From NCBI GenBank assembly GCA_963575745.1, contig CAUYUJ010000084.1, positions 1 to 64,000 on the forward strand: DNA of 64,000 nucleotides, given 5' to 3'. Source of the DNA: Prorocentrum cordatum (taxonomy: Eukaryota). Of the stretch, positions 53,101 to 59,100 are shown piece after piece. The notes beneath the pieces are model-generated. The model was not told the DNA's origin and ran no database searches. It saw only the letters and a list, made by a program, of their open reading frames with translations. Position numbers and translations under genes: made by a program. Each line of letters starts with the position of its first letter. The first letter of the stretch is position 1.

Positions 53101-56100
53101 GGCCTGGACTCTGATCCGTGTTCCCGTCCACGGGGGGAGATGGAGCTCTGACCTCCAACATACAGCGCGCTTGCCTTTCACCATTTTCGGCCTCTGCAGC
53201 CCTCGGCAGGCCCCAGGACACCCAGACAACCACTCATGATGAAAAGCCAGCCCCGGGGAAGGGGTACGGATTTCTGGGTAATTACCGTGGTGGTGGAACA
53301 GACAATACATTGGATCTGCAGAAAGATGTACCCAGTTGCTTCCAGAGTTCCAAAAATGATTCGCCGACGATCCCGGCCCCCGTAATTATTCTCTCTGGGG
53401 AGGATCGAAATATAGACAGACAGAACGAGGACCGACAGCAGTTCTTGTCCATGCAAAACACATTTCGTTGTTGGCGTGGCCGTGGTTGCTGCCCATCTGG
53501 GACAAAACGTCGCCTGCCCAACACCGGCCGCTGTCGGTTTGGGACAACGTTCAGTGTTGGGCATCGTCCCTATGTTTTCCTGTCCCCATTCCCCGCCATG
53601 GCGGAAAAGGGTCCTGAGCGAAACGGGCCGTGGACCACGTGGATTTCCCCAGGGCCAGCTCTTCATCGCGAGACACTTTGTGACGGCCCTTGGGACCCGT
53701 GGAGCTCCACACCCGCCCAAGAGCAGCGGAGCCTTTCCAAGGCCCTCTCCTCCAGGAACTTCCTGCATGCTACATTTTGGGCGTGCCAGCCCTGGGAGCC
53801 GGCGTCGCGAAACGCTGTGGAAAAGTCACGTCTGGAGCCGTGGAGTTGGATCGATCCGAAAGGGCCCCGGACCCCGAATCTTGGCGAGAGCGCTCGACGT
53901 GAACAACGAGGTGGGACGCCTGGACCTCGAGGATCGGGCGGATGCTTCTGGGGGGCCACCCCCCATCGCCACCTGTCCGAGGGGAGCCCCCCTCCGGCCA
54001 GGACATCCTGCCGTACATGATGAACTTCAGCTTCCTCCGCAGCCTCAAGGCGTTCCGGGCGGTGCGGGCGGCGAGGACAGGGCACCCGATCGAAGCAGAG
54101 CGGGGCCGACGGCGCGGACATCCACGCGCCCAGTGGCCTGCCTAGGATGGCGCGTGAGCGCCCGCTTTTTCGGCGTCGTGCCGCGCCAGCGGCCCGCGCA
54201 AGCCGCCATGCTGTCGTGCGTGAGGCCCCTTTCCTTTCGTCGCTCCCTGGCCCAAGGTGGCCCCAGGATTTCCGAGGAGGCCACCCCGGGGCTCCAGAGT
54301 GGAGCGACGAGGCGGGGACACCTTGGTCCAGGGACACCTCTCTGAGACCCCAGGGCTAGCAGGGCCTGCCGCCGCGCATCGCGGACCTGAGAAGGGAGGT
54401 CTTCGAGCCTCTGGTCCGCATTTTCTCCTGCTGCGCCCTTCCCCTCCCCTTCCCCTCCCCTCCCCCTGCCCTCCCCTCCCCTCCCCATCCCCTTCCCCTT
54501 CCCTGCCCCGCTCCCAGTCCCCTCCCCTCCCCTCCTCTCCCCCTGCCCTCCTCCCCTCCCCTGCTCAGACATCCGACGTCGCATTTTCTCCACATCGTGG
54601 CTCCCCTGGGTGCTGGGCCAAAAATCCTGGAGGGGCGTCCCATCCCGAGTCGCTTCTGACTGCCCCGCTGCACCCCCCCAAAGAAAGCCCCCGGAGGCCG
54701 GAATCTGAAGAGCAGGTCCCCCTAGTGTTTTTGCATTCTCCCAGCAACTGAAGGATGCAACCTTGTCGCGCACACCAGAGCCCAACCCTTGCCTGAACGC
54801 CTCACCGTGGTCTGCCACCGCGCGCGTCCTTCCTTGCCACACTGCGAGGATGTCAGGACCGCCCGAGCAGCATCTCGACCGTCGGCGCCGGGCCCCACCC
54901 CTCGCGGTCAGAAGTCCACGGCGAGAGTTTTGTTCTGAACATTTTTTGGCATCCCGGGGGATCCTGCAGGGCCCCGGGGCCGCCAGGAGTTTCTCGCTAT
55001 GAGCTGATCTCGAGAATCCGTCGAGAGCTCCAGGGGCCCACGAGGTGGAAAAAAAAGTCACGACGCCAGGGGCTCTGGGAGGAGAGCGCACACGGGCGGG
55101 CCCTTGCGAGGCGACCTGGGCGAAGCGACCCGGGCGAAGCAGCACCCGGGCCGAGTGGCACCCGGACGAGGCGACACCGGGTCGAAGCGATACACGCGCG
55201 AAGCGACATCCGGTCGCGAAAGCACCCAGGAGAAGGGAGACCTGGGCAAAGCGAGACACAGGTGAAGCGACGCCCGTGCGAAGTGACTCTGCAGTCAGGC
55301 CTGGTGCATGCAGTCGTCGGTCCCTACGAGGTCAACGGGAACCTATAGTGTCCTGCCCATCGCATGTCACGTCCTCGCCGCGTCTGGAGCACGGGGAGGC
55401 AGAGAGCTGCCCTTGGAAGGGGCTCGTGTCCTCTCGGCGGGCCGTCCTCTAGAGTCAGTCCCGACTGCATACCCTCACGACCAGCGGTGTGTCAGCAGCG
55501 TTGCTCTGAGTCTCCTGTAGGATGATCAAGTCGATAACCTTCGTCCGCGAGCTGAGGCTGATGGTCGCCTCGATCCTCTGCTCTATGTCCTCGCTCCTGT
55601 GGGCGTTCGTCCTCCTGACCTTCGTCGTCTACCTCTTCTCCCTCTTCCTGATGCAGACCCTGGAGGTCTCCTTGAGCACCCTTGGCCGAACGCCTGCTGA
55701 AGAAATGATGCAGATGTACGGTACGCTTTGGGATTCAATGTACACGCTCTTTTCCGCTATATCAGGAGGTAGGGACTGGCTCGATGTTATCAAGCCTTTC
55801 GACGAGATCTGGAAGGGATACCGTGCCATCTTCGTCCTCTACGTGATTTTCGTGTTCTTCGGCGTGCTGAACATATTCAGTTGTCTGCGGCAAACCCTGC
55901 CGTCGTGCCAGCGCAGCAGCTCAGCAATAAGGAGTATGAGTTTAAGACCCTCTTCAGCAGCGTGCCTTGTCATCGGCACGGATCCCAAAGATACCATCTC
56001 GTCGTCCTCAGGCCCGCTCTCTCATTCCTCCTCCTCCTCCTCCTCCTCCTCCTCCTGCTCCTCCTCCTCCTCCTCCTCCTCCTCCTCCTCCTCCTCCTCC

Positions 56101-59100
56101 TCATCCTACTCTCCTCCTCGTCTTCCTTCTCCTCCTCTTCCTCCTCCTCCTCCTTTATCTTGTCTCCTTTCCCTCATCCCCTCTCCCCTCCTTCCTCCCC
56201 CTCGAAGGCATCCTCTCAAGCCTCCGAGCCTCTTTCGGGGCCTCTTCGCGGCATCTCGCAGCCCACTCGGCGGCCACTCGGAGGCTTCAGTTGTGCGCCT
56301 CGTTGGGTGCCCCCGTTGGGCCGCCTCGGGGTCGCCGAGGGCGCGGTGCTTCTGCCAAGCGCCCTCCCGAGGAGGCCCGGCAGAGCCATCTCTCCTGGGC
56401 TGTCTCGGGCGGGTCCCGGGGCTATCTTGGACCCCTCTAAGGCCGCGTTGGGGGGAGGGCCCCGACCTGGGATCCGCCGTTTTTTGGTCGATTTGCCGAC
56501 TCTTGAGCTTGTTGTGTCGGAGATGCACCCCGAAGGGTGCGCAAAAGTAAAATTAGGGCGGGAACTCCTTCCTCAGAATAGTGGGGGCCAGATACCTCCG
56601 CAAAGATGTGGCGAAAACAGCGACGGCGAAGTGGGGGGGAAGTCTCATCAGCGGAGCTCGAAGAGCATAGGGCGGACAGTTCCGCCTTCCTTCCGAGATC
56701 ACCCAGAAAGTATTGCGGATCCAGAGTCCGGGAGGGGGGCACTGGGGCAGCCATGGATCGGGTGTCGCTAGAAGCGCCTTTGGCCCAGGGTGCCTCCAGG
56801 ATTTCCAAGGAGGCCCCCACGGCCTCCAGAGTACCTTTTACAGTCGGCCCTGATTAGTAGGTCGACCCTCCCAAATCAAGAGTACCCTTGTGTCCGGTAT
56901 CTTGCGACCCATGCCTCCTACGTTCCTATGGCAGTGTGGCCCTTGGAAGGGTCTTGTGCCCTCTCGCGCGTCCTGTCCAATCAAGTCCGACTGTATGAGG
57001 TTTATACGATTTCAGGGGCACCCCGGGCACCCTGAGGCCAGGGGCACCTTCCTAGCATTCCCCCGAATGTCAGGGGCGGCCTCGCAGACCCCTGGCAAGC
57101 CATCCCTGCCCGTGACGTGCCCTTCGCCTCGCCCCGGGGCGCACGTGTGCGGCAGGAAGGCAGCTTGCGAGGCGAGGGTGACTCCACAAGAGGGGGATGC
57201 TACAAGAATCGTCGAAATGACTTGGCGGCTCTCGTTCTCGGTGTTTGCGCGGTCGGCGTTGCTTCAATGCTGGCATGAGGTGTCTGGCCCACGCGCAGGG
57301 GTCGTCGTCGTCGTCGTGGTCGTCGTCGTCGTCGTCATCGTCGCCGTCGTCACCGTCCGTCGTCGTCGTCTGCTGCCGTCGTCGTCGTCGTCGTCGTCGT
57401 CGTCGTCGTCGTCGTCCGTCAACGTCGTCGTCGTCGTCCGTCGTCGTCCGTCGTTGTTGTCCCCGTCGTCCGTCGTCGTCGTCGTCGTCGCCGAAGTTGT
57501 CCGTCGCTGTCGACCTCGTCCGTCGTCCGTCGTCGTCGTCGTTGTCGTCCTCTGTCGTCGACCTCGTCCGTCGTCCGTCGTCGTCGTCGTTCGTCGTCGT
57601 CGTCGTCGTCGTCCGCCGTCGTCGTCGTCGTCGTTGTCCGCCGTCGTCGTCGTCGCCGCCGCCGTCGTCGTCCGTCGTGTTCGTCGTCGTCCGTCGTCGT
57701 CGTCGTTTCCGTCATCGCCGAAGTTGTCCGTCGTTGTCGACCTCGTCCGTCGTCCGTCATCGTCGTCGTCGTCGTCGTCGTTCACTGTCGTCGTCGTCTC
57801 CGTCGTCGTCGTCGTCGTCGTCGTCGTCGTCGTCGTCGTCGTCGTCGTCGTGCCGTCCAGCCTCCTCGCCATCGTTAGCTCCCCTCGCCCACCTGCCTCT
57901 CGGTGGTCTGACCTTGTCCGCGGTTCCACGCAAGGTGGTCAATTATCTTGGAACGAGGCATGTCATTGCTTGCCGCGTGACTGCACGTATCGCAGCGTCG
58001 GGGGAAAAGTTCGCGTGTGTTATATGAACAATGGTACGCAATTCACTTTGAGCAGGGGTCCCGCCGTAGTCTTACGTGATCCGTTGACTGCGTTCATCAG
58101 CGCACTGGAGGAATGCGTATGTGTGTGTGCGCGTGTGTGTATGTGTGTGCGCGCGTCGGTCGGGAGAACATGGTTTTAGAAAGAAGCACAACCAGACAAC
58201 AAACAGCTTGCGCCCTACACCGTGCTGGCACGGTGGCGGCTTGACTGCTATCTTTGTTGAAAGCGCCAAACACATTGCAGAGGTCGACCGTGACATCGTC
58301 ATCCAAGATCAGATATCGCGGGACAAGTCCACGATGAACGAGGTCAGGCGCATCTTTCAAAATGCAGACAGAGAAGGGACTGGAAGGCTACGCGCATCCC
58401 TTACTGCAATCCTCCCTGTATCCTCGTCCTCCTCCCTCTTCCTCGTCCTCCGCCTCCTCCTCCTCTTCCTCCTCCTCCTTCTCCTCCTCCTCCTCCTCCT
58501 CCTCCTCCCCCAAATCCTTCTTGTTTGGCCTTTGGAGTGGGAATGGAAGGCTACGCGCAGATGAGTTGGAGGCTGTGTTGATGGACGACAAGACCATGAA
58601 GCACCTGCGTGTGTTGGAACTCGACTTCGGGGAGGTGGAAGGGCTTTTCCAGCTGTTGGACATCGACGACCATAACGAGGTCGTCATCGGCCGTCGTCCC
58701 AGACATCATGCGGCTCGAAAACATGTTGTTTGTCGCAGTCGTTGGCCTCTGGACGCGGGTCTCGGGCACGGGGGGCCGCAACAGAACACAGCTCGAGGTG
58801 GACAACCAGCCTCGGGGAAGGCCCACAGGATCGAACACCTTCAGTCTGGAGGTCGCACCTCCACTCGGGAGGAACAGGAAGCCTCGAGGTGGGGAGACGA
58901 CTTCAGAATTGAGGCAGAACCTCCATGTGAAGGTTTTTGATTGTCTTGTGGGGGGAGAGAGGTTCGGGGGTTCACGTGTCGAATAAATGAGAGGCCTAGA
59001 TGTCTGGGGCGCTGCTGCTCTTCCTTCTCCTCCTCTTCCTCCTTCCCTATAATTGTTTCAGCTCTGTTTCGCCTTGTTTAGTGGTGGTGCGAATAGATTC

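Follow-up and report, generated by a model that had tools for sequence, protein, structure and literature searches.

How is a coding sequence restored across a junction at which no familiar pair of intron boundaries can be placed? The question is raised by a stretch of 64,000 nucleotides of Prorocentrum cordatum DNA (positions 1 to 64,000 of contig CAUYUJ010000084.1, forward strand; this whole stretch is called the window below), which carries two paralogous genes, channel 1 and channel 2, for single-domain six-transmembrane (6TM) cation channels with a C-terminal EF-hand (Pfam Ion_trans and EF-hand). In channel 2 the sixth transmembrane segment (S6) is split by intron A, which begins with AT and ends with GG. 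We propose that A is probably a genuine pre-mRNA intron of a small and distinct kind, here termed AT-GG structured introns, which carry a composite cis signal; a second member, intron B, occupies the last junction of the same gene and a third, intron C, lies in channel 1. The parts of A are the following (a slash within a sequence motif or protein string marks the position of a cut).

55875 to 58239, + strand: intron A, 2365 nt, AT..GG in the register common to A, B and C, phase 2, inside S6 (LN I/L TAIF)
55875 to 55896, + strand: leader of A, 22 nt, with TGCGGCAAA at 55886-55894
55897 to 55914, + strand: 5' arm of the terminal helix of A, intron nt 23-40, with 18/18 pairs formed in the minimum-free-energy (MFE) fold of the full 2365-nt intron
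58222 to 58239, + strand: 3' arm of the terminal helix of A, the final 18 nt, ending ..CACGGTGGCGG/ on the last intron base

The exon upstream of A encodes S5, the pore and the first half of S6, its last letters being ...GTG CTG AAC AT at 55874. The intron then begins ATTCAGTTGTCTGCGGCAAACC and closes with ...CACGGTGGCGG at 58239, and the frame resumes at 58240 as C TTG ACT GCT ATC. A search with the exon translation yielded six homologous proteins among 202 candidates. The best match, P0001, is a transcript-like protein of 317 aa from a 1523-base contig without introns; its tblastn segments agree with the successive exons of the window at 93-100%, mismatches falling at their ends, and it spans all six channel 2 junctions. 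Across the A junction it reads ...GVLNILTAIF..., and NILTA is found there in all six homologues. When every junction that reproduces the residues of P0001 was enumerated, four registers proved compatible with the protein, with the ends AT..GG, TT..GC, TC..CT and CA..TT, none of which (0/4) is a GT/GC/GA-AG pair. The conventional dinoflagellate definition (G[T/C/A]...AG, a G after AG and repeated boundary letters) thus fits none of the protein-compatible registers. Of the three introns, A alone would yield different mRNAs in two registers: its Ile codon would end in C with cuts behind AT and GGCGG, and in A with both cuts shifted by one base. A first-pass annotation, made from the letters alone, had held that no such pair restores the protein at this site and that the intron ends pair over 18 bp, and in this respect it was right: its letters, the junction position and the pairing all agree with our direct reading and pairing check. 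The arms of A form 18 contiguous base pairs, 14 of them Watson-Crick and four G-U or U-G on the + (transcribed) strand. Much of the 2.3 kb of A consists of repeats, including (TCC)43 at 56026-56154 (129 nt) and a GTC-like trinucleotide repeat of ~177 units (~550 nt) at 57301-57851.

While the A junction is placed by proteins, intron B could be followed in RNA. Its parts are:

60497 to 60603, + strand: intron B of channel 2, 107 nt, AT..GG, phase 2, last junction of the gene
60497 to 60518, + strand: leader of B, with TGCGGCAAA at 60508-60516
60519 to 60530 and 60592 to 60603, + strand: arms of B, 12 perfect base pairs

The exon preceding B ends ...GAGAT, and the intron begins ATCCACGTGCTTGCGGCAAATT, continues with CCGCCACCGTGC and ends GCACGGTGGCGG. 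The exon directly upstream of A (55521-55874) is complete in 20 runs from nine studies, three of these runs being recorded as polyA RNA. Reads of four runs from four studies (X1 and X4, polyA RNA; X3 and X5, type unrecorded) were compared with the repeat-free stretch 58510-60800, outside of which lie the long tandem repeats of A. In all four runs a single contig (965-1166 nt) joins 58676 with 59153, 59274 with 60416 and 60496 with 60604. The first two of these joints read as GT..AG and GC..AG, respectively, each at +3. B is thus skipped exactly (107 nt, AT..GG, with an ambiguity of 1 nt) in the same contigs as two ordinary introns, in 4/4 runs. The contigs extend at least 255 nt further upstream, enough to cross the A junction. 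In sum, B is removed exactly in contigs from RNA runs, alongside ordinary introns, and the A junction would be fixed by P0001 together with its homologues.

These data bear on a skeptical reading, namely that nothing is spliced here: the transcripts would come from a retrocopy or from a paralogue with ordinary introns, while the locus itself is silent or decaying and its 'introns' are insertions. In dinoflagellates, genes occur in multiple copies and are commonly retroposed, and the contigs are uninformative as to which copy was transcribed. Against this, all exons of the locus are open, and the RNA contigs differ from them by 0-1 per piece; the contigs that skip B also lack ordinary introns of this locus; a diverged paralogue has the same architecture at the corresponding codon; and the junctions of a retrocopy would in any case have required splicing of an intron-bearing ancestor. 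We consider this reading exceedingly unlikely.

Further downstream, in the 3' untranslated region (60725-61023), the contigs of two runs leave the window at 60733 (X1) or 60725 (X3) and resume with the sequence of 61021 or 61023. These apparent skips have non-GY-AG ends and differ between the runs, and the X5 contig reads straight through to 60800; they could be variable splicing or differences between copies or alleles.

The exact removal of B also bears on a second alternative, by which these would be divergent U12-type introns with the minor 5' splice-site core at the junction. The strings ATATCC (B) and ATATTC (A and C) indeed span the junctions and resemble the published consensus, ATATCCTTT or RTATCCTY (PMC6259924, PMC5032977), and such introns are conserved in animal Nav/Cav genes (PMC6259924). 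However, the cut that the RNA defines in B lies 2-3 nt inside the motif (AT/ATCC or ATA/TCC). At A, the first-pass annotation had kept a register /ATATYC...TGGC/ as its alternative; that register would encode Gly and is ruled out, because 6/6 homologous proteins carry Ile at the position. Moreover, the 3' ends are GG rather than AC or AG, the TCCTTRAC branch motif, which U12-type introns have 10-20 nt before the 3' site, is matched by reading at no more than 5, 3 and 6 of 8 positions within the final 40 nt, and components of the minor spliceosome are reported to be absent in alveolates (PMC7789003, PMC11347168). A U12-type origin is, accordingly, very unlikely.

Intron C completes the set, and with B it bears out the earlier observation that two more introns in the window (60497-60603 and 6723-7756) share the architecture of A:

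6723 to 7756, + strand: intron C of channel 1, 1034 nt, AT..GG, phase 2, in the same S6 codon as A
6723 to 6743, + strand: leader of C, 21 nt, with TTGCGCCA
6744 to 6751 and 7749 to 7756, + strand: arms of C, 8 bp with one G-U

Here, the preceding exon ends ...AACAT, and the intron begins ATTCTGGAGGTTTGCGCCATT, continues with CCGCCGAC and ends GTTGGCGG. All three introns have a common build: phase 2, an exonic AT followed by ATYC (AT/ATYC), and a leader of 21-22 nt with TGCG[G/C]CA at nt 12-18. A CYGCC-initiated arm begins at intron nt 23, 23 and 22 in A, B and C, respectively, and pairs with the very last bases, ...GGCGG. Within the leader a mini-hairpin of 3-5 bp is possible at about nt 7-19, with a UGC loop in A and B, and its pairing survives swaps (C-G/U-G versus U-G/C-G, with G-C in C). 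All three also carry a further YTGCG motif some 30 nt upstream of the 3' end.

To what extent might such helices arise by chance in a genome of this composition? With an anchored helix defined as a contiguous helix that includes the last intron base, dinucleotide shuffling of the intron ends attains the 18, 12 and 8 bp of A, B and C in 0, 1 and 59 of 2000 cases. Random pseudo-introns drawn from the window (n = 5000) attain at least 8 bp in 3.5% and at least 12 bp in 0.2% of cases, and the anchored helices of four ordinary introns of channel 2 measure 1, 5, 7 and 4 bp. When each intron is folded at full length, the terminal helix closes it in the MFE structure (18/18, 12/12 and 8/8 pairs), with pair probabilities of ~0.83 in B and ~0.72 in C. 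The idea that end-pairing is a general trait of introns here was rejected, the conventional introns giving loose duplex energies no better than those of shuffles (z of -0.73 to +1.50) and anchored helices of 1-7 bp.

At the level of sequence motifs, the pattern ATATYC-N14-20-CYGCC occurs four times in the window against 0.66 expected, a count that one in 100 shuffles reaches, and three of the four occurrences are A, B and C. The exact TGCGGCAAA is restricted to A and B (2/2 exact matches in the window), while the 9-mer with one mismatch is not enriched (9 against 12.9 expected); the exact CACGGTGGCGG is restricted to the 3' ends of A and B and, as complement, the 5' arm of B (3/3). The fourth match to the pattern, at 44670-44695 on the - strand, contains ATATCCTT, a perfect U12-type 5' splice-site core, with CTGCC 19 nt on. 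It sits in a 260-aa open frame without a family match and may be due to chance; outside simple repeats, the motif at 44695 (-) has no helix partner.

The ends of the three introns are further related by sequence. Over the first 40 nt, A, B and C are identical pairwise at 25-27/40 positions (0-4/500 shuffles do as well), and over the last 40 nt at 24-26 columns (0-10/500 shuffles), while no alignment of their interiors was obtained and the 64-kb window holds no other copies of their ends. Since A and C interrupt the same codon in paralogues whose proteins are ~73-81% identical (tblastn), their signals have outlasted the rest of the intron. The paralogous pair of ordinary introns, 54076-55520 and 3924-6368, serves as a control, and its 5' ends are identical at 17/40 positions (70/500 shuffles).

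Of the eight helix pairs common to A, B and C, none is broken in any intron (0/24 cells). Pair 7, which is U-G, C-G and A-U in A, B and C, has changed on both sides, and pairs 2 and 6 have changed on one side; the 5' arm of A differs from the perfect helix of B at 3/12 positions. Drawn from three sequences, none of these signs of conservation is statistically strong. The five non-Watson-Crick pairs (5/5) are all G-U on the sense strand. On this the first-pass annotation had built an argument for selection on RNA structure. Its reading of a real non-GY-AG intron and of an architecture recurring three times in the window holds, as does the orientation of every wobble, but the argument itself is weak: by our own count, 8/12 possible transitions in the C-rich arm would keep pairing, and the pattern is only mildly improbable.

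This conservation has to be weighed against an origin in mobile elements. In such a reading an introner-like (MITE-like, i.e. resembling miniature inverted-repeat transposable elements) element has left the helix as its terminal inverted repeat and A and B as its old copies, which the ordinary, permissive dinoflagellate spliceosome removes despite their odd ends, and the RNA structure is incidental. The introners of Amoebophrya do carry inverted repeats of 8-20 nt between the intron ends (PMC7789003), introns with repeats of this type are reportedly abundant in a high-GC dinoflagellate genome (10.1101/2022.07.25.501386), and A and B have ends in common. On the other hand, the boundaries lack direct repeats or a target-site duplication (the joint ambiguity at B being 1 nt), the 5' arm sits 22 nt inside the intron behind a leader that is itself conserved, and the ends have no further copies in 64 kb. 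Likewise, A and C keep their signals while their interiors are unalignable, one helix pair has changed doubly, and the wobbles are all on the sense strand. In addition, canonical spliceosomes use a G...G or an A...C combination in the second step, and introns that begin with A and end with G match neither. We hence regard the relic reading as improbable, while noting that the arms may stem from a transposon and nonetheless serve as a signal at present.

Several points weigh against the AT-GG structured intron as a class, or blunt its evidence. The A junction is known at the protein level and not at the nucleotide level. The C junction would stand on homologues only, the closest of which, P0002, is 90% identical, and no transcript identical to the gene of C was found in the protein search. 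The contigs would look the same if the joined form also existed as DNA, i.e. as a retrocopy. The class comprises just three introns, of which two are paralogous, and the class-level claim rests on these cases in one gene family within one window. In terms of structure, the 8-bp helix of C is equalled in 3% of shuffles, the whole-sequence folding energy of B is ordinary (z of -0.69 and -0.88), and in the loose end-duplex energy 14, 51 and 228 of 300 shuffles do as well as A, B and C, respectively. Against the G+C-rich background, the specific helix anchored at the intron end is the one feature that stands out. Finally, the 3' ends of the ordinary control pair 54076-55520 and 3924-6368 are identical at 27/40 positions (6/500 shuffles), which means that conserved 3' ends are not unique to AT-GG introns.

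With these points considered, we still favor the AT-GG structured intron as the probable nature of A. Building on the anatomy of the three introns and its recurrence, the exact removal of B and the protein-level support for A, we infer that helix and leader are the signals being read. The composite signal would have four parts: first, an exon ending in AT followed by an intron beginning with ATYC, with GY...AG dinucleotides not defining the boundaries; second, the leader of 21-22 nt with TGCG[G/C]CA, able to form the mini-hairpin of 3-5 bp; third, the arm beginning with CYGCC, whose partner is the final 8-18 bases of the intron; and fourth, the GGCGG 3' end. The helix could close the whole intron alike at 107 or 2365 nt, and it would be this composite signal, rather than the terminal dinucleotides, that is recognized. 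With such closure the 3' cut would fall where the helix ends, and the 5' cut would lie a constant 21-22 nt from the helix, on a small structured leader.

As to the machinery, the misfit of the A-first and G-last bases noted above points to either altered recognition or another enzyme system. A spliceosome that recognizes its sites by non-standard means is the leading candidate, at somewhat less than an even chance; recognition of this type has been proposed for Amoebophrya (PMC7789003) and hemistasiid diplonemids (PMC12621601). A non-spliceosomal cut-and-join route, as suspected for the nonconventional introns of euglenids, is possible but less likely, and the remainder of the probability falls to other machinery. 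A bolder extension is that these introns represent a third route of nuclear mRNA splicing in core dinoflagellates, or at least in a GC-rich lineage, with its own code and dedicated machinery, which evolved independently of the euglenozoan system and was missed by G[T/C/A]-AG callers. Its code would be AT/ATYC, the 22-nt leader with UGCGGCA and a helix ending GGCGG/, and it might be read by a guide RNA that pairs with the leader or by an endonuclease/ligase pair. We deem this extension unlikely.

The setting of these introns is a pair of genes that otherwise have typical dinoflagellate introns. The window has a G+C content of ~60% and abundant simple repeats over its 64 kb, and channel 1 and channel 2 are the only two genes that Pfam recognizes among 40 non-repetitive open reading frames (ORFs), apart from a weak C1/PHD-like match. 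The gene parts seen, those of channel 2 being obtained by tblastn of P0001 and P0005, junction enumeration and sequence reading, are:

46786 to 60667, + strand: channel 2 gene, part seen
~46786-46902, 54002-54075, 55521-55874, 58240-58386, 58550-58679, 59156-59277, 60419-60496 and 60604-60667, + strand: channel 2 exons
60665 to 60667, + strand: channel 2 stop codon TAG
46903 to 54001, + strand: channel 2 first intron, GA..AG, a tentative exon/intron assignment drawn from one 50%-identical homologue only
54076 to 55520, + strand: channel 2 ordinary intron, used for contrast, GA..AG with G after AG, anchored helix 1 bp
58387 to 58549, + strand: channel 2 ordinary intron, GC..AG, each boundary carrying the same 17-nt repeat, anchored helix 5 bp
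58680 to 59155, + strand: channel 2 ordinary intron, GT..AG, joined in 4/4 runs, anchored helix 7 bp (44/2000 shuffles)
59278 to 60418, + strand: channel 2 ordinary intron, GC..AG, joined in 4/4 runs, anchored helix 4 bp
3586 to 8267, + strand: channel 1 gene, part seen, with exons at ~3586-3923, 6369-6722 and 7757-8267
3924 to 6368, + strand: channel 1 first intron, GA..AG

By junction enumeration, the four other P0001-supported introns of channel 2 are all readable as G[T/C/A]..AG with a G after AG, and introns of this typical form match published descriptions from dinoflagellates (PMC5032977, PMC11453091). The boundary repeat of the 58387-58549 intron spans 58380-58396 and 58544-58560; at 17 nt it exceeds the 2-11 nt over which 'identically repeated intron boundaries' extend in PMC5032977. 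The single exon 7757-8267 of channel 1 corresponds to the region that is cut by four introns, three ordinary ones and B, in channel 2 (58240-60667), while channel 1 retains the AT-GG intron in S6 and the upstream GA-AG intron. From the sequences, this difference looks like 3'-biased intron loss in channel 1, or gain in channel 2. The 7.1-kb first intron of channel 2 contains an ORF (50565-50861, + strand) with sub-threshold C1/PHD zinc-finger matches (E ~2e-4). Elsewhere, ~29500-40100 is taken up by ~10 kb of arrays with a periodic unit of 10-11 nt of the type GGCCGTCTTGG/AGGCCATCTTG, with higher-order repeats of ~390 and ~1550 nt.

What would such a class mean if it proved general? Gene callers applied to a high-GC dinoflagellate have been adapted for GT/GC/GA donors only (10.1101/2022.07.25.501386), and AT-GG introns would consequently be missed in annotation: gene models restricted to GT/GC/GA-AG would truncate or break genes such as these channels. 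It would also imply that RNA-structure splicing codes arose independently in alveolates and euglenozoans. Furthermore, the constant termini and conserved leader, which set these introns apart from the euglenid and Amoebophrya cases, would offer a handle on the trans-acting machinery, and intron B, at 107 nt, is a ready minimal substrate for experiments.

A literature search that included the motif strings returned no description of the AT-GG signature in dinoflagellates or elsewhere, most subscription papers lying outside its scope. A metagenome scan for DNA of the contig of P0001 found only a locus of 33% identity, and two protein searches for read-through ORFs of relatives returned only transcript-derived proteins (3 and 6 matches). 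Degenerate 5'-motif scans of genome and viral contig collections gave more than 119 matches each, in bacteria and phages; these were set aside as chance matches of a weak pattern. Rfam, self-cleaving ribozymes included, has no gathering-threshold match in the window, and over B it gives only noise at E>2. Bulge-helix-bulge motifs, IRE1-type loops, a group I-like P1 and pairing of the leader to exon 2 were likewise rejected, as folds and inspection by eye gave only 4-7 bp, in no case common to A, B and C.

How, finally, do A, B and C compare with the intron systems already described? The introners of Amoebophrya (Farhat et al. 2021, PMC7789003) are the nearest in that they occur in a dinoflagellate lineage, have non-GT-AG ends and are removed by a route that is unknown, and their inverted repeat of 8-20 nt, which pairs the 5' and 3' regions into a hairpin, has its counterpart in A, B and C. 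However, their terminal dinucleotides are highly variable (PMC7789003), as opposed to the constant AT..GG ends described here, and they form multi-copy, strain-specific families. Direct repeats of 3-5 nt overlap their boundaries, whereas A, B and C share 0 (A, at the nucleotide level, register 1), 1 (B) and 1 (C) nt. Also unlike the introners, our three introns have a conserved leader, after which the 5' arm starts at a set position, nt 22-23. Within the window they have no further copies.

A second parallel is offered by the nonconventional introns of euglenids (PMC12501133, PMC3935182, PMC6221363) and those of hemistasiid diplonemids (PMC12621601), which, like A, B and C, coexist with conventional introns in the same genes, have ends joined by base-pairing, vary greatly in length and depend on machinery that is unknown. 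In Euglena the code consists of CAG at +4..+6 and CTG at -8..-6, with spacers of 3 and 5 nt and variable borders (PMC12501133). The introns described here have CAG (A), CAC (B) and CTG (C) at +4..+6 and GGT, GGT and GTT at -8..-6, and thus depart from the euglenid code. Moreover, their helix ends on the last base and their 5' spacer of 21-22 nt has a conserved motif of its own. By definition, the euglenid introns leave as full-length circles once the conventional introns are out; for B, the contigs show the spliced product. The Euglenozoa are also a lineage unrelated to the alveolate-like host of A, B and C.

Third, the introner-like elements of Symbiodinium and Polarella (Roy et al., 10.1101/2020.10.14.339549) have an inverted repeat that ends at the 3' splice site, as it does in A, B and C. 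These elements use GT/GC/GA-AG sites, with a duplicated 4-nt target supplying the 5' site directly beside the arm; by contrast, A, B and C have AT..GG ends, no duplication and a leader of 22 nt before the arm. Fourth, U12-type (AT-AC) introns share with A, B and C the AT start, an ATATCC-like string, an extended conserved 5' sequence and an ion-channel host gene. A, B and C differ from them in a cut displaced by 2-3 nt, a GG end, the lack of a branch-site consensus and a 3' site sequestered in the helix. Hence the U12-type, euglenid, Amoebophrya-introner and Symbiodinium-element definitions each fail in at least one feature. Judged by their sequences, AT-GG introns thus appear to be set apart from the known structured non-canonical introns by the combination of constant termini, a conserved leader and fixed spacing.

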